From an uncultured Candidatus Saccharibacteria bacterium (GTDB lineage Bacteria > Patescibacteriota > Saccharimonadia > Saccharimonadales > CAZJQT01): DNA of 40,848 nucleotides. Positions 4,687 through 29,459 of the stretch are shown here, piece by piece (position 1 is the first letter of the stretch; every line of letters starts with the position of its first letter). A model generated the notes under the pieces. The model made no database searches, was not told the origin of the DNA, and saw only the letters and a list, made by a program, of their open reading frames with translations. The position numbers and the translations under genes were made by a program. Location of the stretch: contig CAZWRJ010000005.1 of NCBI GenBank assembly GCA_964636215.1, positions 1-40,848 of the forward strand. Reading direction: 5' to 3'.

Positions 4687-4762
4687 TGGTACGCCCGGAG
4701 AGATTCGAACTCCCGACTTTCTGGTCCGAAGCCAGACGCTCTATCCACTGAGCTACGGGCGC
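4687..4762 (-). tRNA. tRNA-Arg (anticodon UCG), CCA encoded
   Basis: The reverse complement GCGCCCGTAGCTCAGTGGATAGAGCGTCTGGCTTCGGACCAGAAAGTCGGGAGTTCGAATCTCTCCGGGCGTACCA folds as a cloverleaf with anticodon loop CTTCGGA. The 1:72 pair is G-U. Confidence 0.85.
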
Positions 4763-13220: not shown

Positions 13221-13297
13221 TGGAGGGCCAGCGGGGACTCGAACCCCGGACACCCTGCTTAAGAGGCAGGTGCTCTAACCAGCTGAGCTACTGGCCC
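13221..13297 (-). tRNA. tRNA-Lys (anticodon CUU), CCA encoded
   Basis: The reverse complement GGGCCAGTAGCTCAGCTGGTTAGAGCACCTGCCTCTTAAGCAGGGTGTCCGGGGTTCGAGTCCCCGCTGGCCCTCCA gives a canonical cloverleaf with anticodon loop CTCTTAA. Confidence 0.9.
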
Positions 13298-20809: not shown

Positions 20810-22698
20810 TGGATTTAACAAAACCAAACTACCAAGCCTGGCTAATAAATGAGAAGGATTACCCGAAGAGTGGGACGATCGAAGAGAAGATTTGGTTCAT
20901 AGTTGGCTATGGCATTTTGGCACCGTCAACCCATAACACTCAACCCTGGCTGTTTGAGGTTAATGACTATAGGTTATTTATTACACCCGACTCAAAATTA
21001 ATGCTGACCGGTGCTGACCCATCAGGTCGCAATTTACAGATAAGTTTGGGCTGCTGTGTTACTAACATATTAATTGCAGCTGCGTACTTTGGTTTTAGGA
21101 CAAAGGATAAGTGGGCAAAAGATGCAATTACTATTACCTTTGAAAAATATCAACCAAATCGATCAATTAAGGATCTGTTTGATGCTATGCCTCAAAGATA
21201 TTCCGACAAAATGCCTTATAAAAATAAACCACTCAAGGCTAATCACAGCGATCAACTCTTGCTTAACCTATCTGATTCAGGCGGCAGCCTAATTCTCTTT
21301 TCTGACAAAGAGGTAATCGACCAGATTGCAAGGAAACAAGCTGCAGCTACTCTGGGTTATAAAAATAATCGGGAATTTTTTGAGGAACTCAGTCATTGGC
21401 TTCAACCATCAAAAACAGAATCAGAGTATGGCATGCCTGGTTTTGTAGTAGGTCTGTCCAATGGACAATCGAAGATCTTCAAACCATTAATTCGTAAACT
21501 TAAGCCAACTGTTAAACTGTTAGCCAAAAAAGACCATACAGCTGTTGCTAGTAGTTCAGCTATTGGCTTTATATCTACACAAAATGATGCTACGCAAGAT
21601 TGGTATAATGCTGGGAAAAAATATGAGCGGCTTGCTCTGCATGCGACATCGCTTGGACTGGTTATGGCTCCAATGGCAGCCTTAATTGAGGATAAAGAAC
21701 AACGTGCTCAAGTTTCTAATACTCTCAAAATAGATGGCAACCCACAAATATTCTTTCGATTAGGATATAGTAAGCATAAGCCATATCACACGCCAAGACG
21801 AAGGGTTGGACATTCTGCAATGGAAACACAACGACAATTGATGAAAAACCTGGGGATAGCAGTTGAGTCTAATCGCATTAAAATAGATTCCTACGATATT
21901 AATTACATCGTAGCAGGTAGTGGCAAGCCTGTGCTTATGCTGCACGGGGCTAATATTGGTTGGGCTCAATGGTTTCAAAACATTGTGGAAATTTCTAAAT
22001 ACTTTAAGGTCTACGCCTTGGATATGCCTGGGGCAGGCAGTTCAACTAAAGTTAACTTCCACGAAACGAATTTCGAAAAGGATTATCTACGCATCGTCGA
22101 TAAGTTTATTATGAAAATGAATCTGAATAATGTGAATATTGTAGGAAGCTCTTTCGGAGGCTGGGTCGCATTAAGACTGGCAATCGAAAACAAACCTTAT
22201 TTAAATAAAATAGTTTTAACTAATCCTCTTGGTTTTACTACACATATGCCTTTGAGATTCAGGCCTGTGTCTCTCAGGCCTTTTGCTTTGTTCCTGAGTA
22301 AAACTGCATTAAAGCCTGTTCGCAAGAATAAAAATCTAGAAAAGTTTATGAGGGATGTTTTCTACGATAAAAATTTACCGTTGTCTAGTTTGTTCGTGGA
22401 CTACTTTTACGAACTATCAAAAACCTCACACAATATTTTGTTTATTAGTCGGTTGGCTCATCCTACCGGCATGCGTAAGGAGTTATTTCTAGGTAAAGAT
22501 TTATCTAAAATTTCTAAACCCGTATTTGTTATCTGGGGTAAGGAAGACCCTCTGATGCCGTTTAAGACTGTAGAAAAAAATATCCATCTCATACCGGGAG
22601 TCAAACTAGAGACTCTTGAAGAAGTAGGGCATATGCCTCCGGTTGAGGTTCCTACTAAATTCAATAAACTAACAATAAATTTTTTGAAAGATAAATAG
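20809..22698 (+). CDS. fusion protein: Acg-type nitroreductase-like FMN domain + alpha/beta hydrolase domain
   Basis: N-terminal half carries the LAPSTHNTQPW signature of Acg/Rv2032-type nitroreductases. C-terminal half has HGANIGW, the nucleophile elbow GSSFGGW and a C-terminal GHMPPVE. Its ATG overlaps the upstream TAA by 1 nt. Confidence 0.7.
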   Translation: MDLTKPNYQAWLINEKDYPKSGTIEEKIWFIVGYGILAPSTHNTQPWLFEVNDYRLFITPDSKLMLTGADPSGRNLQISLGCCVTNILIAAAYFGFRTKDKWAKDAITITFEKYQPNRSIKDLFDAMPQRYSDKMPYKNKPLKANHSDQLLLNLSDSGGSLILFSDKEVIDQIARKQAAATLGYKNNREFFEELSHWLQPSKTESEYGMPGFVVGLSNGQSKIFKPLIRKLKPTVKLLAKKDHTAVASSSAIGFISTQNDATQDWYNAGKKYERLALHATSLGLVMAPMAALIEDKEQRAQVSNTLKIDGNPQIFFRLGYSKHKPYHTPRRRVGHSAMETQRQLMKNLGIAVESNRIKIDSYDINYIVAGSGKPVLMLHGANIGWAQWFQNIVEISKYFKVYALDMPGAGSSTKVNFHETNFEKDYLRIVDKFIMKMNLNNVNIVGSSFGGWVALRLAIENKPYLNKIVLTNPLGFTTHMPLRFRPVSLRPFALFLSKTALKPVRKNKNLEKFMRDVFYDKNLPLSSLFVDYFYELSKTSHNILFISRLAHPTGMRKELFLGKDLSKISKPVFVIWGKEDPLMPFKTVEKNIHLIPGVKLETLEEVGHMPPVEVPTKFNKLTINFLKDK

Positions 22699-24890
22699 TG
22701 GACTTCGAAAGCTTTAGACTACCAGTCCTAATATTTACGGTAGCCATCAACAGCTTCTTGGCCACGGTTGTTTTTAAAAGTAATCGTAAGAATGCTACAA
22801 ACCAAATTTTTGGTATCTTGTCAGTGGTTACAACACTATGGCTTGTCGATGTCTACCTATCAGTCTCACCTACATTCATAAATGAAGGTTTACTTTGGGT
22901 AAGAATGAGCATATTTCTAGCATCAGCCCAGATACTCTTTTTTTATTTACTCGCACACACGTTGCCCCACCAAGAGCTTCAGTTAAAAGGCAAACCTCTA
23001 TATTTATTGGTAGCTGGGACCCTTGTTGTTATGGCTACAGCCATTTCACCTTTTGCCTTTACGGGAGTGAATATTATCAACTCACGAGTTGAAGCAATAC
23101 CAGGTCCAGGATTGCCGCTGTTCGTATTATTTGCAATCAGTCTAAGTTTCGCAGCCATTTATAAGCTTTTTAACAAGCTTCGAAATGCTTCTGGCCACGA
23201 GAGGAATCAATATAGCTATGTAGTGGTAGGTTTGGTGATGATGCTAGGTCTACTTATTTTTACAGTACTAATACCAGTCGCAGTTTTTAAAAACAGTCAG
23301 TTTGTTTCTCTAGCTCCCCTTTATACGATTATTTTCTTAGGGATGACGACCATAGCTATTATTAGGCACCGCTTATTCAACATAAGAAGAGTCATAGCCC
23401 GATCGGTGACCTATTTGTTGGTTCTTACTTCGTTTGTGCTTGCTTATACCGGTGCCGTGTTACTAGTCTCATACATCTTCTTCAAAGATTCACATATCGA
23501 TACCAGTCACCATATAACATACATTCTTTTGGCACTTACTTTTACACCAACTTTATATTGGCTGAAACATCAATTCGACAAGGTTACAAATCGGATTTTC
23601 TTTAAGGATGCATATGATCCTCAAGAAGTGCTTAATGAACTCAGCGGTGCAATAGTGGCTGAAATTGATTTACATCGAATTCTTAATAAAACGCGCCTCT
23701 TGTTAACCTCCGCGATAAAAAGTTCATTTGTCGAATTTGTACTACTAGAGGATGATCATCCAAAACTAGAAGTGTCTAAAAACTTTAGAGAGCAGGATCA
23801 TTTACGCGATATCAGCAAACATATGCAAGAGCAAAATAAAGACGTACTCATTACCGAAGAATTGACTGAATATCATAGTCTTAAGGACGATTTAATTAAA
23901 GACGGTGTCGCTATAAGCTTAAGACTCAAAACCCAACACCAAGTAGTTGGTTACGTATTATTCGGTGAGAAACAAAGTGGCGATGCATACAGTAAGCAAG
24001 ACGAAAAACTTCTTAGCATCGTGGCAAATGAGCTAGCAGTTGCAATCCAGAATGCTATGCGTTTTGAAGAGATCAAACAATTTAATGTCACCCTGCAGCA
24101 GAAAGTCGATATGGCCACAAAACAACTGCGCTTAACAAATGAAAAACTACGGGAAATTGACGCTACCAAGGATGAATTTATCAGCATGGCTTCTCACCAA
24201 CTCAGAACACCTCTCACTAGTGTTAAGGGCTATTTGAGTATGGTGCTAGAGGGTGATGCCGGTAAAGTTACGGGCACCCAACGTAAACTGCTGGACCAAG
24301 CTTTCACTAGCTCTCAACGCATGGTTTACCTGATAGCCGACTTGCTGAATGTTTCCCGACTCAAAACTGGTAAGTTTATTATAGAAACAACCCCAACTAA
24401 TTTAGCGGATATGGTGGAGGGTGAGATCAACCAACTTACAGAAACAGCCAAAGCACGTAAGCTGGTGCTTAGCTACTCCAAGCCCAAAAAGTTCCCAACT
24501 CTTATGTTAGACGAAACTAAAATGCGCCAGGTGGTTATGAACTTTGTCGACAACGCCATTTACTACACACCTAGTGGCGGACATATTGAAGTCAAGCTCT
24601 CGGAGGATGATAAAAATATTCAGCTAACTGTTGAGGACGACGGTATTGGCGTGCCTAAGGACGAACAGCCTCACCTGTTCGGAAAATTCTACCGGGCTGG
24701 CAATGCCCAGAAGGCCCGGCCGGACGGTACTGGGCTCGGACTTTTCATGGCTAAGAAAGTTGTGATTGCTCAAGGTGGGAATATTGTCTTTCATAGTGAG
24801 CCAGGCAAGGGCAGTACCTTTGGTTTTGCATTTGAAAAAGCAAAGCTGCTCCCTGTAGTTACCGAGCCCGAAACTGCTGTTGCCAAATAA
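22698..24890 (+). CDS. sensor histidine kinase (N-terminal 7TM sensor, GAF-like, HisKA, HATPase_c)
   Basis: About 7 hydrophobic helices in the first 290 aa. H-box SMASHQLRTPLTSVKGY, N-box NFVDNAIYYTP, G1 DDGIGV and G2 GTGLGL. Its GTG start overlaps the upstream TAG by 1 nt. Confidence 0.85.
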   Translation: MDFESFRLPVLIFTVAINSFLATVVFKSNRKNATNQIFGILSVVTTLWLVDVYLSVSPTFINEGLLWVRMSIFLASAQILFFYLLAHTLPHQELQLKGKPLYLLVAGTLVVMATAISPFAFTGVNIINSRVEAIPGPGLPLFVLFAISLSFAAIYKLFNKLRNASGHERNQYSYVVVGLVMMLGLLIFTVLIPVAVFKNSQFVSLAPLYTIIFLGMTTIAIIRHRLFNIRRVIARSVTYLLVLTSFVLAYTGAVLLVSYIFFKDSHIDTSHHITYILLALTFTPTLYWLKHQFDKVTNRIFFKDAYDPQEVLNELSGAIVAEIDLHRILNKTRLLLTSAIKSSFVEFVLLEDDHPKLEVSKNFREQDHLRDISKHMQEQNKDVLITEELTEYHSLKDDLIKDGVAISLRLKTQHQVVGYVLFGEKQSGDAYSKQDEKLLSIVANELAVAIQNAMRFEEIKQFNVTLQQKVDMATKQLRLTNEKLREIDATKDEFISMASHQLRTPLTSVKGYLSMVLEGDAGKVTGTQRKLLDQAFTSSQRMVYLIADLLNVSRLKTGKFIIETTPTNLADMVEGEINQLTETAKARKLVLSYSKPKKFPTLMLDETKMRQVVMNFVDNAIYYTPSGGHIEVKLSEDDKNIQLTVEDDGIGVPKDEQPHLFGKFYRAGNAQKARPDGTGLGLFMAKKVVIAQGGNIVFHSEPGKGSTFGFAFEKAKLLPVVTEPETAVAK

Positions 24891-24923
24891 CTTGTGCTTT
24901 CAAAACAATTATGTTTATAGTTA

Positions 24924-24952
24924 TTGACAAGTTGTGATGGTTGTGGTAGAAT
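24924..24952 (+). promoter_or_regulatory. near-consensus sigma70-type promoter (TTGACA-17 nt-TGgTAGAAT) with no ORF behind it
   Basis: TTGACA at 24924-24929, a 17-nt spacer, an extended -10 TG at 24944-24945 and TAGAAT at 24947-24952, all read directly from the sequence. Confidence 0.6.
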
Positions 24953-24955
24953 TTG

Positions 24956-25044
24956 GTCATCTTTGCGCGGAGCAAGGAGGTGGGTACATCTCAGGACCGG
25001 TGGATCTCTATAGGAGACCCGGGATGTTTCGTCCGCAAGATGAC
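24956..25044 (+). ncRNA. candidate structured RNA: ~89-nt imperfect long hairpin starting at the predicted TSS
   Basis: GTCATCTT (24956-24963) pairs with AAGATGAC (25037-25044). Further pairing GCG/GG with CCGC, CATC/GATG, CCGG/CCGG and an apical TCTC-TATAG-GAGA. It contains an orphan AAGGAGGTG. No known RNA family recognised. Confidence 0.35.
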
Positions 25045-25394
25045 ACCTTAACAAGTCAGATCATTACAGTTCATTTCTAGAGTTACTTTGATAGCTCTGA
25101 AATAAGCCTCCGGTAAGTTTACTAGAGGCGTTTTAGCGTTTTGGTAAATCAATGTAGATCAGCTAGTATCAGGCAGCTATAGCAAATGTGGTTAATATAC
25201 CACCTCTGTTAATAAGCATTACTGGTATTAGATGGTCTGCATTGGTTGAGTGGTATCAACTGATTGGTTGAGCTTTTTGCTCCCAACTGGTCAATATCTC
25301 CCAAACGCAGAACTGTGACAACAATTTACTTTCAAGATTCAAAGAAGTCTGGAGCAGCACTTTAATAGTCATAACTGGCTATTAGGGCGCTACT

Positions 25395-25419
25395 CCAGAC
25401 CCTTCCGGGCCTGGTTTTT
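25395..25419 (+). terminator. putative intrinsic terminator at the left edge of the high-GC island
   Basis: CCAGACCC-TTCC-GGGCCTGG (8-bp stem with one A/C mismatch) followed by TTTTT. Confidence 0.4.
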
Positions 25420-25527
25420 GCGGGAACATCTGACGCCGACGGCTTCTGCCTAAGCTGAGGATGGTCCTCGGGCCCCGCCCGGAACCTAAGTCCCCAATCA
25501 ACGACAGAAGAAAGGTAGGTGTTCGCC

Positions 25528-26256
25528 ATGCCGGCGACCCAACCCCCGTCCCAACGTCCGCCCCGCGGTCGCGGTGCTCAAGGTGGAGGCCATCAGCCCC
25601 CGCCCACCAACCCCACGCAGGCCTGGATGACCGGAGTCGATCAGTTCGGCGCCGACACCGTGGCCTGGATGGCGCGCACCGACGGCCGTCTCGACTTCAC
25701 CGACGCCCAGCTCGACTGGCAGCGCGACTTCAACGGTCTCGCCGTCCAGTGGGCCGAAGCCGTCGACGAGTGGGGTCAGACCGCCGAGACGCGGTTCACC
25801 ACGCTGTTCGACCGGACCGAGGCGCTCAGGGCGCACGTCAACGACAACCGTCAGGCCACGACCAACCTGCACCGTCGACTCACCGTCGTCGAGCGGGCCG
25901 CTGGCATCGCCACTCGGATCCCGTTGTGGGGCTACCTCATCGTCACCGTGGCTGGCTGTCTCGCTGGGCTCCTCTGGAGCGCTGCCGACTTCGCCCGCGA
26001 CGCGACGATCACGGACGCGGCCGGTACGGTCTCGCACGTGACGGTCAGCTACCAGATCGCCGAGAACCCGCTGTCCGCCATCATCGTCGGCCTGCTCGTC
26101 GGCATCATCGCCCTGGTCTTCGTACCCAGGGAGGTGCCCCCCGAGCCGGAACCGCAGAACACGGGCGCCAACCCCCAGGCCCAGCCCGCCGCCCAGCAGC
26201 AGCCGCAGAACGCGCAACCCGCGCCGACGCAGCCGCAGCCCGTGGCAGGACTCTGA
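25528..26256 (+). CDS. membrane protein with two TM helices and Pro/Gln-rich termini (island gene 1)
   Basis: This is the frame with strong GC3 bias and a realistic composition. TM spans are IPLWGYLIVTVAGCLAGLLWSAA and LSAIIVGLLVGIIALVFV. ATG 25528 lies 8 nt after GGTAGG; the alternative is GTG 25519. Competing frames are Arg/Gly-rich junk. Confidence 0.75.
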   Translation: MPATQPPSQRPPRGRGAQGGGHQPPPTNPTQAWMTGVDQFGADTVAWMARTDGRLDFTDAQLDWQRDFNGLAVQWAEAVDEWGQTAETRFTTLFDRTEALRAHVNDNRQATTNLHRRLTVVERAAGIATRIPLWGYLIVTVAGCLAGLLWSAADFARDATITDAAGTVSHVTVSYQIAENPLSAIIVGLLVGIIALVFVPREVPPEPEPQNTGANPQAQPAAQQQPQNAQPAPTQPQPVAGL

Positions 26257-26380
26257 GGGCGCAAGGAATAGAGGCCTAAAAACCTCACCGGCATGACACC
26301 GGTCAACATGTCCGTAATATAACGGGGTAGCTCCGTTACGCGCATCCGTCCCTGGCGTGGTCAATTAGGGAACGTGGAAA

Positions 26381-27331
26381 ATGGAAAGGATGGTGGTCCA
26401 GATGGGCCTTCTTCGCCGAGTCGGAGGTGGCGTCGCCGCGGGCCTCCTCCTTCTGTTTGTGGTGTCGGCGTTCTTCCCGGTGCTGAACCCGTTCGCGGGC
26501 GCAGCAACGACTACGTCGACGACGTCAACGACAACACCTCCCGCGGGGTGTACCAGCCAGTTGCACTTCTACGCGACGGACGTGTCCAGCAACTTCAACG
26601 GACCGCCGGTCATCCAGACCGACGTTCCCGGACAAGAAGCTGAGCTCCACACCCGTCGCTGCGCAGACCCGGCCCTTGTGGTCGAACACGCGCATGTCAA
26701 CCAGTTGCCCGGCTTCGCCGAGTTGAATGGTGACCAGCAGTTCGCGGACAAGGTCCGAGAACTGGCCTGGAACCATGAGCTCTGGGGACAGACCATCAAG
26801 CAGCTGGAAGACAAGGAGGCCACGGCAGTCGCTTCCGACGAGACCATGAGCGGGTCGTATGACACGCTCTACATGCTCGACGGTGTGACAGACGTTCCGC
26901 TGATCCGTAAGGCACAGCCCGATCGTCCGTCGTTCGCGGTCCTGCGGTTCACCTACGCCGATGGTTCGGTGGTGAACTTCAAGCTCGACTGCGGGTTCCA
27001 GCCAGTCGGGCAGTTCCCGAACGTGCCGCCGGTGGAGACACCTCCCCCGCCTCACGTTCCCCCGCCGCCGTCAACCACGACGACGGTGTGCATCCCCAAC
27101 GGGCACGAGAACTGCGGCAAGGACGCATCAACGTCGCCGTCCACCTCGATCGTGGTTACCTGTCCGGATGGATGGCATCTCCCTCGTGGAGGTACTTCCG
27201 TCAGCGACTGCGTCAAAGATGTGGTCATCACCACGACCACCACCACGGCCCCGGCTCCGCCCACAACGGTAAGCCCACCCGTGACACCCCCAAACACCAG
27301 CCCACCGACCACAGGCGTTCAGCCTCACTGA
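26381..27331 (+). CDS. secreted Thr/Pro-rich protein (island gene 2)
   Basis: GC3-biased frame. Signal peptide (GGGVAAGLLLLFVVSAFFPVLNPFAGA), a poly-Thr linker, a ~200-aa globular part, then a PPVETPPPPHVPPPP linker, a 4-Cys module and a TTTTTAPAPPTTVSPPVTPP tail. Start could be ATG 26381, 26390 or 26402. Confidence 0.75.
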   Translation: MERMVVQMGLLRRVGGGVAAGLLLLFVVSAFFPVLNPFAGAATTTSTTSTTTPPAGCTSQLHFYATDVSSNFNGPPVIQTDVPGQEAELHTRRCADPALVVEHAHVNQLPGFAELNGDQQFADKVRELAWNHELWGQTIKQLEDKEATAVASDETMSGSYDTLYMLDGVTDVPLIRKAQPDRPSFAVLRFTYADGSVVNFKLDCGFQPVGQFPNVPPVETPPPPHVPPPPSTTTTVCIPNGHENCGKDASTSPSTSIVVTCPDGWHLPRGGTSVSDCVKDVVITTTTTTAPAPPTTVSPPVTPPNTSPPTTGVQPH

Positions 27332-27368
27332 TCGACCGGCAAGTACGGAAGGGAGGTGGTCCAAGTTC

Positions 27369-27437
27369 GGGTCCTGGTGCACGTGCTGCCCAAGCACACT
27401 CTCCCACTCACCCCTCCGGGAGAGAGCACCAGGACCC
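27369..27437 (+). repeat. nested inverted repeat (three-way-junction-like) at the right edge of the island
   Basis: Perfect 12-bp outer stem GGGTCCTGGTGC / GCACCAGGACCC. It encloses two hairpins: GTGCT-GCCCA-AGCAC and CTCTCCC-(12 nt)-GGGAGAG. Confidence 0.55.
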
Positions 27438-27523
27438 TCAGGTCTCTTGAAAGTATTAAGCTCTAGGCTTTGAGCGCGCAGCTAATGCGTGATCGCCTAT
27501 TGAGCGAAGTTGTCACAAAACTT

Positions 27524-27585
27524 GTGAGTCTGGTTTGCCTTTCGGCAATCGCGCATCCGCGCACCAGACTCACAGCAACTTTTTA
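27524..27585 (+). terminator. second nested inverted repeat followed by a T-run (terminator-like)
   Basis: Perfect 11-bp outer stem GTGAGTCTGGT / ACCAGACTCAC. It encloses TTGCC-TTTC-GGCAA and GCGC-ATCC-GCGC, followed by AGCAAC and TTTTT. Confidence 0.45.
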
Positions 27586-27690
27586 TGAATTGTAACGATC
27601 TGATTTGGACGCTCCTTAACAATCTACTCAGCGACAACTTTCAATAATTTCAATTTGCTATTTAATTCATTTTTCACCAAGGAGGTGTAT

Positions 27691-29277
27691 ATGAAACGAT
27701 TACTTTCACGTCTGTCGACTCGTAGCAAGCTGGCAATTGGTGCTGCATTAGCACTAGTTGCGATTGCCATACCAGCAGTGGTTATGGCCGGCTTTGGTCC
27801 AGATCGACCGACAAAAGTTTACACTGGCCCAGGAACTCCTGGGTTCGATCATGTTACGTTTGACTCATTCACTAATGTTCCCGGTATAGGTGACGAGCGC
27901 GCCTTTTTCACTGGCGCCTATCCTAACGGAACCGTCTTAACTGATCCGCTTGCGGAAGTTAAGGACGGTGACGAACTGACCCTACAAGTTCTAGTTCACA
28001 ACAACGCTGATGCTAGCCTTAACACTGTGCCCGATGGCCACGGTGGTTTCAAGGGAATCGCCAAGAACACAATGGTGCGAGTAGCTCTGCCAACTGGTTC
28101 TAAAGCCAGCCAACAGGCTACAGCCTACATAAGTGCTGACAATGCCCAGCCTCAGCAAATATTTGACACCATGAACTTCGGTTCTAAAGACGGTAGTTCC
28201 TTTAGCTTGGAATACGAAAAGGGTAGTGCCCACGTCCGTGGTAACTACATCAACCAAGCCTTAAGTGACAACATCGTAAGTGGTGGTGCACTAGTTGGTA
28301 CAGTAGCCGCTGACGGTAACGTCAAAGGTTGTTTCCAACAAGAAGTACTGGTCACCCTAAAAGTCAAGGTCCATATACCTAAGTACACTATCCAAAAGGA
28401 AGTGCGCTTCAAGGGACAAGGTCCCAGTGACTGGAAGGAATCAGTTAACGCTAAAGTTGGTGACACCCTAGAGTGGTCAATTAAGTTTGACAACCTTGGA
28501 TCCGAACAACTCAATAACGTAATTGTTCTTGACCAAGTTCCAGCTGGACTAAATGTTGTATCCCAATCAGTAGTTCTCTATAACGGAAACTACCCAGATG
28601 GTTACACATTTCCTGACAGCGCTATTCAAGCCAATGGCCGCCAGATTAATGTAAATATCGGCAGCTACAATCAACTTGACCCTAGCGACCAAGCCAATGG
28701 TTTGGTGTCCGCTCAGGTAATCTTTGCTACTAAAGTTGCAGAGCTTTCTGGCGATAAGTGTGGAACAGTTGGTTTAACTAACCAAGCCTGGATCACACCA
28801 GAAGGTCTCAGCTATATCTACGACACAGCAAGCGCAAACGTTAACTCTGGCAAAGAATGTCAGAACCCAACATTTGTTTGTAAAGCTGTCACCGTTGACA
28901 AGCTAGACGACCGAACTGTCAGTGTCAAAGTGACACCTGACTTCACTGGTAAAGACGTTAGTGTGGAAAGCTACACCTACAATTTCGGTGATGGCTCAAC
29001 TCCAAAAACTACCGATCAAACACCGCTAAAGCACACCTACGCTAAGGACGGCACCTATCACATCGTGACTAGTGTCAACTTCTTGGTAAAGGGTCAAATG
29101 CATAACGGTGTCACTAGTGACGCTTGTGCCCAAAACGTTACCTTTAGTACTGAGACAACTCCTCCAAGTGAGTTGCCAAACACTGGTGCTGGTAATGTTG
29201 TCGGTATCTTCACCGCAGTCACCGTAGCTGGCGCATTAGCGCACCGCTACTGGTTGAACCGCCGTGTAAGTGCTTAA
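27691..29277 (+). CDS. LPNTG-anchored surface protein with DUF11-like and PKD domains
   Basis: AAGGAGGTG SD 5 nt before ATG 27691. Signal peptide ending AVVMA. DUF11-like block (VGDTLEWSIKFDNLGSEQLNNVIVLDQVPAGL). PKD signature (YNFGDGS...HTYAKDGTYHI). C-terminal LPNTG + TM + RRVSA. Confidence 0.85.
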   Translation: MKRLLSRLSTRSKLAIGAALALVAIAIPAVVMAGFGPDRPTKVYTGPGTPGFDHVTFDSFTNVPGIGDERAFFTGAYPNGTVLTDPLAEVKDGDELTLQVLVHNNADASLNTVPDGHGGFKGIAKNTMVRVALPTGSKASQQATAYISADNAQPQQIFDTMNFGSKDGSSFSLEYEKGSAHVRGNYINQALSDNIVSGGALVGTVAADGNVKGCFQQEVLVTLKVKVHIPKYTIQKEVRFKGQGPSDWKESVNAKVGDTLEWSIKFDNLGSEQLNNVIVLDQVPAGLNVVSQSVVLYNGNYPDGYTFPDSAIQANGRQINVNIGSYNQLDPSDQANGLVSAQVIFATKVAELSGDKCGTVGLTNQAWITPEGLSYIYDTASANVNSGKECQNPTFVCKAVTVDKLDDRTVSVKVTPDFTGKDVSVESYTYNFGDGSTPKTTDQTPLKHTYAKDGTYHIVTSVNFLVKGQMHNGVTSDACAQNVTFSTETTPPSELPNTGAGNVVGIFTAVTVAGALAHRYWLNRRVSA

Positions 29278-29384: not shown

Positions 29385-29459
29385 GGTCCCATCGTCTAGC
29401 GGTTAGGACACCAGGTTTTCATCCTGGCAACAGGGGTTCGATTCCCCTTGGGATCACCA
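29385..29459 (+). tRNA. tRNA-Glu (anticodon UUC), CCA encoded
   Basis: GGTCCCATCGTCTAGCGGTTAGGACACCAGGTTTTCATCCTGGCAACAGGGGTTCGATTCCCCTTGGGATCACCA folds as a cloverleaf with anticodon loop TTTTCAT. Confidence 0.9.

Follow-up and report, generated by a model that had tools for sequence, protein, structure and literature searches.

OLE, ROOL, GOLLD and raiA are large, ornate bacterial non-coding RNAs (ncRNAs) that form families in Rfam. In Saccharibacteria, a phylum of ultrasmall epibionts, almost nothing is known of gene regulation or of the genes for interaction with the host, and native regulatory RNAs are essentially undescribed. In the text available of a recent perspective on the phylum (PMC11665869) riboswitches are mentioned only as possible engineering tools, and the only Saccharibacteria-specific motif met in this analysis is lysM-TM7, named by Weinberg et al. 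(2017; PMC5737381). Riboswitch-type and other cis-acting leaders, for example the T-box or lysM-TM7, are placed downstream of the promoter and ahead of the operon's first gene. Our study concerns an RNA in this position in the genome of an uncultured Candidatus Saccharibacteria bacterium (GenBank assembly GCA_964636215.1; 740,556 bp in 37 contigs, 44.3% GC, 97.7% complete). The stretch of DNA that was analysed, referred to as the window, is one whole contig of this assembly (C5, CAZWRJ010000005.1; 40,848 nt), and positions refer to it unless another contig is named.

We find that the DNA between a histidine kinase gene and a group of surface-protein genes encodes a member of a real, previously uncatalogued family of structured RNAs that is restricted to Saccharibacteria. 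The stretch from 24958 to 25527 is probably a long 5′ leader, which would act in cis as a regulatory RNA, of an operon of two or three surface-protein genes (A, B and possibly C). An earlier note on this DNA had proposed a novel ncRNA or leader here, a proposal that the lack of an Rfam match and the conserved, covarying family now support. Taken as a whole, the observation it recorded stands in its promoter, its gap free of open reading frames (ORFs) and its hairpins; the hairpin followed by five T residues, given as the end of the region, and an 18-codon mini-ORF did not hold up as meaningful features. The parts of the RNA and its promoter region are as follows.

24891 to 24897, forward strand: conserved DNA motif CTTGTGC, located 26 nt before the −35 hexamer, a candidate activator-binding site.
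24924 to 24952, forward strand: sigma-70-type promoter with TTGACA at 24924 to 24929, a 17-nt spacer, an extended TG and TAGAAT at 24947 to 24952 (11 of 12 matches).
24956 to 25044, forward strand: P1 domain, a 5′ hairpin closed by GUCAUCUU/AAGAUGAC (−36.6 kcal/mol, z −3.0).
25046 to 25073, forward strand: nearly invariant core, with the 22-nt TTAACAAGTCAGATCATTACAG at 25048 to 25069 (BLASTN and pattern searches).
25066 to 25072, forward strand: 5′ strand of P2, ACAGUUC, the 3′ part of the core, predicted to pair with 25310 to 25316.
25075 to 25305, forward strand: central domain, found in long forms only, with hairpins at 25075 to 25103 and 25107 to 25130 and others at 25255 to 25300 (minimum-energy fold).
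25147 to 25247, forward strand: conserved central hairpin with GUAGAUC...GGUCUGC stems around self-complementary CUAGUAUYAG stretches (−45.4 kcal/mol, z −5.8).
25310 to 25316, forward strand: 3′ strand of P2, GAACUGU, inside a family-conserved CAGA..GUGAC block (minimum-energy fold and complementarity).
25347 to 25400, forward strand: P4 hairpin, GUCUGGAGCAGC.../...GCUACUCCAGAC, the most stable element (−33.0 kcal/mol, z −7.3).
25395 to 25419, forward strand: weak terminator-like hairpin CCAGACCC-UUCC-GGGCCUGG followed by U5, its 5′ arm overlapping the 3′ arm of P4 (−10.1 kcal/mol, z −0.3).
25420 to 25527, forward strand: last part of the 5′ untranslated region (UTR), with a tentative P5-like helix (GCGGG at 25420 to 25424, CCCGC at 25474 to 25478) and a Shine-Dalgarno (SD)-like AAGGUAGG at 25512 to 25519 (read from the sequence).

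The conservation of this element is concentrated in its core. A BLASTN comparison of 24891–25460 with 60 relatives gave matches in ten. Seven of the matches, each in a different family of the order, fell on a single 28–35-nt stretch at 89–93% identity and left the rest unaligned; the two other genomes of the window's own family gave no BLASTN match. Around each match the same layout recurred, with a strong promoter, a CAUCC-type start, the core, conserved hairpins and then genes, and the seven families provide the unbiased evidence for the invariance of the core. A degenerate 22-nt pattern representing 25048–25069 was found in 54 of the order's 401 genomes, or 49 of the 323 of high quality, almost always in a single copy, and the reversed pattern, used as a control, matched nine genomes (count of the table). 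The 54 include the window's own genome and two unpublished ones (G342 and G352), on which nothing else rests. Among 185,579 prokaryotic species genomes (one genome per species) the exact core pattern occurred in 104 stretches; the 80 of these that were listed nearly all carried the titles Saccharibacteria, Saccharimonadales/-ia/-aceae, Microsaccharimonas or Patescibacteria group, or no organism title, with two titled Parcubacteria and one Dongiaceae. The pattern had no match in viral contigs, and an origin in phage is not supported. Conservation in relatives, which the earlier note had named as a test, is thus seen in many Saccharibacteria and extends to covarying helices. Copies collected from all loci number 132, of which 99 are distinct. 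One metagenome-assembled genome carries six leader copies on three contigs (L073/L074, L101–L103), some only 720–1950 nt apart, each with its own promoter and each preceding a different small gene (~90–190 aa) of normal GC; two further genomes carry two copies each (L076/L077 and L113/L125).

The copies share a common architecture in two sizes. Short forms, which make up the majority of the copies from species genomes, measure ~270 nt from the transcript start to the ATG, and long forms carry extra hairpins in the 5′ domain together with the central domain of ~230 nt, which short forms replace by a tetraloop or a small hairpin. The window RNA is a long form of ~570 nt (24958–25527); its segment 24958–25425 is predicted to fold to −172.7 kcal/mol, compared with −126.9 ± 6.2 for shuffled sequences (z −7.4), and none of 100 shuffles equalled it. 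The ~89-nt hairpin at 24956–25044 described previously is confirmed as P1, and the perfect SD-like AAGGAGGTG reported within it is present at 24974–24982, in a purine-rich GGAGGUGGG stretch. Short-form relatives have a 5′ hairpin in the same place whose apical loop is of the GGUGUGAG type; by resemblance only, GGAGGUG in the window (24974–24982) may be the counterpart of the GGUG-type motif in this loop. The sequence of P1 varies widely among subgroups and its fold is kept, and three helical segments of P1 show compensatory changes in 15 of 15 pairs of the covariance-model alignment.

P2 joins the core to a distant partner. The 9-mer at 25065–25073 has its best complement at 25309–25317 (eight of nine pairs), a pairing that also appears in the minimum-energy fold, and relatives show a partner strand altered in step with the core's 3′ part (UAGUUUA/AAACUAG, CAGCGCA/CGCUG and UAUAGUG/CACUAUA). 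In the model-fitted alignment P2 (helix 4) is 85% paired, and in the shortest members it is a perfect 8-bp hairpin with a tetraloop. Within the central domain of the window the GCCTC...GAGGC hairpin recorded earlier is present in the minimum-energy fold (25107–25130). A motif scan for the conserved central hairpin flagged 13 of the 99 copies, about ten of which, the window included, fold alike by our reading of the output; RNAalifold predicts 21 pairs in it, eight of them with compensatory changes, from eight long-form copies including that of the window. P4 is of the type GGRAGCAGC/GCUGCUCCC across the family. RNAalifold predicts 19 pairs for it, 16 with compensatory changes, from a MAFFT alignment of 23 copies, and in the covariance-model alignment all 20 of 20 pairs show such changes. 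The pairing of GTCTGGAG (25347–25354) with CTCCAGAC had been taken for an alternative to the terminal hairpin; the two do pair, but as part of P4, the dominant hairpin, and not as a minor alternative. In short forms a further domain, P5, is closed by an 8-bp covarying helix and is followed by the SD 8–20 nt and the start codon 17–27 nt further on, distances that were taken from plus-strand rows only.

Variable insertions expanded a full-length MAFFT alignment to an unusable 1770 columns, and the analysis therefore turned to sub-blocks and a covariance model. The model, R1, was built from 12 short-form copies with its structure specified by hand, and finds 46 full-length copies at E ≤ 1e-8 among 80 loci. 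In the alignment of these 46 copies, standard pairs make up 89.4% of 1866 cells (74.7% after shuffling), changes on both sides occur in 43 of the 48 pairs, and the covariation score is 0.396 (0.184 after shuffling). None of 500 shuffles reaches any of these measures, and when the partners are slid by 1–3 columns only 29–43% remain paired. The MAFFT-based counts, those for P4 on 23 copies and for the central hairpin on eight, are free of any bias from model fitting. Like riboswitches and other cis-acting leaders, the family therefore contains a conserved structured domain with covariation.

The RNA matches no catalogued family. At gathering thresholds a scan of the whole window with Rfam reported three transfer RNAs (tRNAs) and the transfer-messenger RNA (tmRNA) and nothing else; the tRNA genes lie at 4690–4762, 13224–13297 and 29385–29456, and the tmRNA gene at the very end of the contig (40439–40847). 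A permissive scan of 24800–25600 (E up to 10) returned six matches, all to eukaryotic microRNA or long non-coding RNA models and at chance level, the best being to a plant microRNA model with 23.3 bits against a cut-off of 89. No Rfam 15 family reached its gathering threshold on this RNA, including T-box, signal recognition particle (SRP) RNA, 6S, RNase P, OLE, ROOL, GOLLD, raiA, HEARO and lysM-TM7. The impression, gained by eye, that SRP RNA, RNase P, 6S and riboswitch signatures are lacking is borne out by these scans, which gave none of the clean matches to a known family that had been looked for as a check; membership of a known RNA family is rejected on this ground. Full-text searches of the literature and the accessible parts of PMC11665869 and PMC5737381 yielded no account of this RNA; a prior listing in the supplementary motif lists of large RNA-discovery papers is possible.

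In the window's own genome, Rfam models found no SRP RNA (small or large), 6S RNA or 16S ribosomal RNA (rRNA) in the 97.7%-complete assembly; its rRNA is probably unassembled, and its SRP RNA may be too divergent for the Rfam models. RNase P RNA is located elsewhere in the genome (C12:2492–2841, 240 bits). A housekeeping RNA occurs once per genome in essentially every genome, and the patchy distribution of the present RNA, given above, rules out a role as the missing SRP or 6S RNA.

The position of the element points to a leader. The promoter at 24924–24952 is the best of five promoter-like sites in 24000–28000, a region for which shuffles give 1.8 ± 1.4 sites, and with its score and TG dinucleotide it is as close to consensus as first described. 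It is not, however, an orphan: the next promoter-like site on the forward strand is at 26293, with none in between. A promoter of the form TTGACA-N17-(TG)TAnnnT (TTGACA-N17-TGnTAnnnT) precedes 89 of the 99 distinct copies, and a family-wide CAUC 5–7 nt after the −10 hexamer places the likely transcript start at ~24958 (CATC). The forward strand has no ORF of at least 60 aa within 24891–25460, in agreement with the earlier description; the largest there are of 48, 33 and 32 aa, and the next one of that size begins at 25461/25519. The gap 24890–25519 is the largest in the window between ORFs of at least 100 aa. On the reverse strand an 87-aa ORF at 24791–25054 overlaps the end of the kinase gene. 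In 21 of 21 examined loci an ORF of at least 80 aa begins on the same strand 169–755 nt after the core, and the conserved structure extends up to the ribosome-binding site, the SD and start codon following the last conserved helix by 17–27 nt in the plus-strand rows read. Promoter and ORF thus enclose the element on one strand, as expected of a 5′ UTR if transcription begins at the predicted site. A free-standing RNA of ~0.5 kb, or one of ~180 nt ending at a weaker hairpin, had also been envisaged; a leader fits better, given that the promoter is not an orphan, that terminator-like sites are rare among the copies and that an ORF follows in every locus examined.

The 3′ end that had been assigned to the region deserves closer attention. 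The hairpin and T5 at 25395–25419 are present, but several results speak against their marking an end. The stem has seven of eight pairs, and 62 of 200 shuffles fold as well; the hairpin is not listed in the terminator scan and does not form when folded together with P4 (25347–25400). It lacks what defines an intrinsic terminator, namely a stable GC-rich stem followed by a U run that is better than chance. Hairpin-plus-T5 sites occur in nine of the 99 family copies, at differing positions. With so weak and out-competed a hairpin, the structured RNA in all likelihood runs on past 25419 as far as the start codon at 25528, and the hairpin itself is possibly an attenuator specific to the window.

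Our analysis suggests a model for the activity of this leader. The near-consensus promoter would transcribe the leader together with the operon, producing an RNA with a shared order of parts: P1 with its purine-rich GGUG-type motif, the core of ~22 nt, P2, P4, P5 and the ribosome-binding site, where P2 encloses nothing in short forms and the ~230-nt central domain in long forms. We propose that the invariant core and the helices around it form a recognition site for an effector, which could be a protein, an RNA or a small molecule, and that the state of the 3′ half (P4/P5) sets the amount of full-length, translatable mRNA. In the window the read-out could be attenuation, with P4 (−33 kcal/mol) holding the 5′ arm of the weak hairpin and its U5; as P4 sequesters this arm, read-through into gene A would be the default and termination at 25419 would require the disruption of P4. 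A pyrimidine tract 5′ of P4, read by eye, could compete for the 5′ arm of P4. Several candidate partners found no support. Antisense matches to the core in the window's own genome are of 10–13 nt only and about as many as expected by chance. Pairing of the core with 16S rRNA, examined in three relatives because the own assembly contains no 16S, reaches −13.4 to −16.4 kcal/mol, and 39–88% of shuffled cores are as good. Neither Rho-dependent polarity nor CsrA is supported, since neither domain was found in the 97.7%-complete genome.

Control may also be exerted on the DNA. CTTGTGC, with at most one mismatch, lies within 50 nt upstream of the −35 hexamer in 41 of the 68 copies with enough upstream DNA, and its spacing to the −35 is 25–26 nt in 38 of these 41 carriers; a control region gave 3 of 99. 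The 10-mer CTTGTGCTTT from this region occurs twice in the 740-kb genome. CTTGTGC is a candidate site for the binding of an activator, perhaps the partner of the histidine kinase encoded next to the leader, and the combination of a kinase neighbour and a motif at fixed distance suggests two-component transcriptional control on top of the RNA.

Several observations weigh against this interpretation. The transcript and its 3′ end are predictions from the sequence. Most copies were retrieved with the pattern, so the near-invariance of the core among the 99 is partly built in, and the R1 alignment, being fitted to the model, favours the structure. The window itself matches R1 only in part, at 25046–25109 with 25.9 bits and at 25254–25401 with 22.7 bits, where the P4 part of the model falls on 25349–25399; a divergent long form would be expected to match in this partial way. 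The P1 domain of the window and the tail at 25420–25527 are assigned by analogy, and the tail alone is no more stable than shuffled sequence (z −0.2). The ease with which shuffles match the hairpin at 25395–25419 also tells against attenuation in the window. No family-wide alternative pairing that would hide the SD was found, the SD lying just outside P5 in most of the short forms read, so that a switch mechanism is hypothetical; nor did the 99 copies contain a uniform terminator alternative. Lastly, small-molecule aptamers do not usually contain 22 contiguous invariant nucleotides, a feature that fits a protein or nucleic-acid partner, or action as a site in the DNA, at least as well.

A cis-acting leader has to be weighed against three other explanations. 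The element might be an abundant stand-alone ncRNA, either a transcript of its own or processed from the 5′ end of the mRNA, that acts in trans or in a ribonucleoprotein, perhaps with the adjacent small membrane protein in the manner of OLE RNA and OapA. The strength of the promoter and its extended −10 in 89 of the 99 copies would suit such an RNA, as would its large, ornate form with a long invariant stretch and the small membrane protein gene that comes next in most loci; the hairpin and U5 at 25395–25419 could yield an RNA of ~460 nt in the window, and with 6S and SRP undetected by the Rfam models not all RNAs of this genome are accounted for. We nevertheless consider this explanation unlikely. 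Terminator-like sites are few and inconsistently placed, and the one in the window is no better than shuffles and loses to P4; the conserved structure reaches the SD of the next gene; the downstream genes vary by lineage, which leaves no constant protein partner; and presence in only 54 of 401 genomes speaks against a housekeeping RNA.

Alternatively the core could act as DNA, as a recombination or cassette-exchange site or as an operator for a DNA-binding regulator, marking the upstream border of a replaceable cassette, with the RNA structure being secondary. Its nucleotides are nearly invariant while the flanks diverge beyond recognition by BLAST, and the sequence after it is hypervariable and compositionally foreign between a conserved kinase and a conserved gene C; closely spaced copies in the six-copy genome each stand before a different small gene, and an IS1595-type transposase gene adjoins one copy. 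This account is distinctly improbable in the light of the helices, which covary and contain many G-U pairs on the transcribed strand only, as fits RNA and not duplex DNA. The core moreover keeps a constant orientation relative to the promoter and the downstream genes, has no dyad apart from GATC, has no recombinase gene as a regular neighbour and is absent from viral contigs, and the GC-rich A and B genes are also found without it. We give hardly any credence to the third explanation, by which the conservation would reflect coding for a small protein or leader peptide, either the 18-codon mini-ORF at 25024–25080 or another short frame across the core. The mini-ORF does have its ATG at 25024 with GGAG 7 nt upstream, two of the three frames through the core are open in nearly all copies, and several variable positions of the core are third-codon positions in one frame. 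These variable positions are, however, largely fixed by the search pattern itself, and the mini-ORF is not conserved, its frame having no in-frame ATG in 82 of the 99 copies. Among the 99 copies none of the short frames across the core behaves like a gene: the stop-to-stop spans are short (medians of 37.5 and 33 codons in the two open frames), starts are inconsistent in all frames, and any start, GTG and TTG included, is available in only 63 and 49 copies. In the window the alternative frame lacks a start codon and is interrupted by a TGA 5 nt ahead of the 22-nt core, and the covarying helices overlap the frames. As a conserved ORF with a start codon is not found across the relatives, a leader peptide is rejected.

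We return to the leader and the genes that surround it, which are the following.

22698 to 24890, forward strand: histidine kinase gene, 730 aa, of the type seven-transmembrane (7TM)-HisKA-HATPase (Pfam HATPase_c 1.9e-28, HisKA 2e-16, HisKA_7TM 2.3e-9).
25528 to 26256, forward strand: gene A, 242 aa, with a coiled-coil region and C-terminal membrane helices; GC content at third codon positions (GC3) 0.87 (ORF table).
26381 to 27331, forward strand: gene B, 316 aa, secreted, with a signal peptide, a globular domain containing a conserved Cys-Gly motif and a Pro/Thr-rich tail; GC3 0.76.
27655 to 29277, forward strand: gene C, of normal GC content, encoding a surface protein that carries DUF11/PKD domains and, at its C terminus, an LPNTG sorting signal (LPXTG); GC3 0.43 (Pfam).

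Besides the window, 10 of 17 scanned loci have a kinase of this type immediately before the leader and on its strand; three further loci gave no upstream ORF under the rule used. At one locus (L053:1380–2159) an IS1595-family transposase gene occupies the usual place of the kinase, directly upstream of the leader. The spacing from the SD suggests that gene A starts at ATG 25528 rather than at GTG 25519. Gene A belongs to no Pfam family and had no homologue at E ≤ 0.001 among 1012 candidates. Gene B has 39 homologues besides itself at 37–68% identity, all unnamed or hypothetical and with Saccharibacteria as the only organism named; its conserved Cys lies within a DCGFQP/RCGNP motif. In the AlphaFold (AF2) model of gene B, 150 residues have a predicted local distance difference test (pLDDT) score of at least 90, with residues ~50–210 above 90, and the model shows four to five helices followed by a six-stranded sheet. 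Comparison with the PDB gave a best E of 0.15 with Foldseek and a best Z of 4.1 with VIA (root-mean-square deviation 2.2 over 52 residues), and the modelled domain may be a new fold. Gene C, preceded by a 324-nt low-GC spacer, is syntenic: every copy has matches in 17–19 of the other 20 loci, and identity is 33–73% in the best matches listed. Just after gene C, at the tRNA gene at 29385–29456, many other metagenome contigs pile up in a depth spike. Genes A and B are linked across loci only by chains of weak similarity; the A and B proteins diverge almost beyond recognition while the flanking gene C evolves normally.

Genes A and B lie in an island of unusual composition. The stretch 25264–27588 has 63% GC, compared with an average of 44.3 ± 3.7% in 400-nt windows of the genome, and is the largest such island. 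Around A and B (25420–27450) the island of ~2 kb runs at 60–70% GC, and GC3 rises to 0.96 in relatives at the same locus in many families (L043–L062). Among 98 copies the GC content downstream exceeds that upstream by >0.05 in 73 and by >0.10 in 45, and 15 show no rise. Misassembly at the jump from 42% to 68% GC near 25400 is rejected, as the same step stands behind the RNA in all 20 other profiled loci; 25158–25688 is also covered, without any difference, by a contig that comes from a different sample of the study. The candidate causes of the anomaly are GC-biased gene conversion at a recombination hot spot, repeated transfer and selection. The RNA itself is rejected as a cause, since relatives of gene B without the core are GC-enriched too and 15 of the 98 RNA copies have no GC rise behind them. 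None of 15 metagenome loci encoding gene B relatives has a match to the core or to R1, and the five of these that were inspected carry A-like, B and C genes behind shorter, different leaders. Where low-GC genomes carry several copies, this leader stands before unrelated small genes of normal GC. The RNA can thus be separated from the GC-rich genes, and the leader is a modular element. A second high-GC island in the same genome (C8:20053–22065, 61% GC) contains two genes on the minus strand (344 and 243 aa, GC3 0.78–0.83) and has no copy of the RNA in front; it looks like ordinary horizontally acquired DNA.

A native structured RNA with a strong, conserved promoter, tied to a diverging locus for membrane, secreted and LPXTG proteins beside a sensor kinase, offers a testable entry point into post-transcriptional control in this phylum. 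It would also serve to mark a hypervariable surface locus whose striking GC3 anomaly is conserved, its promoter and leader form a ready-made strong module for genetic tools, and RNA biology gains a large new family with a 22-nt invariant element. A more far-reaching idea, possible though we doubt it, is that the RNA is a portable tag of a regulon and its family a new class of large sensor RNAs. One effector, a dedicated RNA-binding protein or a signal tied to the 7TM kinase or to host contact, would then recognise the core with its neighbouring helices and so co-ordinate fast-evolving, foreign cassettes of surface and effector genes, including the GC3-rich A and B, whose composition stays far from that of the genome in many families of the order. 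If true, the RNA would mark the host-interaction genes of epibionts and provide a handle with which to find them.

A comparison with described systems places the element among several kinds of regulatory RNA. Mycoplasma variable lipoprotein loci, with their expression-site leaders, likewise have a conserved promoter and 5′ UTR before hypervariable surface genes, and the present leader occurs in multiple copies in one genome; in contrast to those loci, no invertible elements, repeats or recombinase genes are seen here, and conservation lies in covarying RNA helices and not in sequence alone. The processive-antitermination leaders put of phage HK022 and EAR of Bacillus are, like the present RNA, structured elements in cis that open long or foreign operons for surface components, and this RNA too could act on the polymerase. 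It has no match to them in sequence or structure, however, and in most copies no terminators to override were found; with no Rho RNA-binding domain found in the 97.7%-complete genome, Rho-dependent polarity is an unlikely target. OLE-type RNAs share with it their large and highly structured form, long near-invariant stretches, confinement to one lineage and an adjacent gene for a small membrane protein, but it has no match to those Rfam models at E up to 10, its structure runs to the ribosome-binding site of the next gene, usually without a terminator, and the neighbouring protein is not constant. Riboswitch-type leaders likewise join a conserved, covarying core to downstream ends and genes that vary by lineage and, as in the window, can have a stable hairpin that overlaps, by its 3′ arm, another resembling a terminator. 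The present RNA differs from them in having no Rfam match, in its size of ~270–570 nt, much larger than most aptamers, in a contiguous invariant 22-mer in place of dispersed conserved nucleotides, in genes for fast-evolving surface and membrane proteins that give no hint of a ligand, and in having no consistent SD-sequestering or terminator alternative across the family. Although it belongs to no catalogued family, the element would work most like a riboswitch-type or protein-binding 5′ leader.

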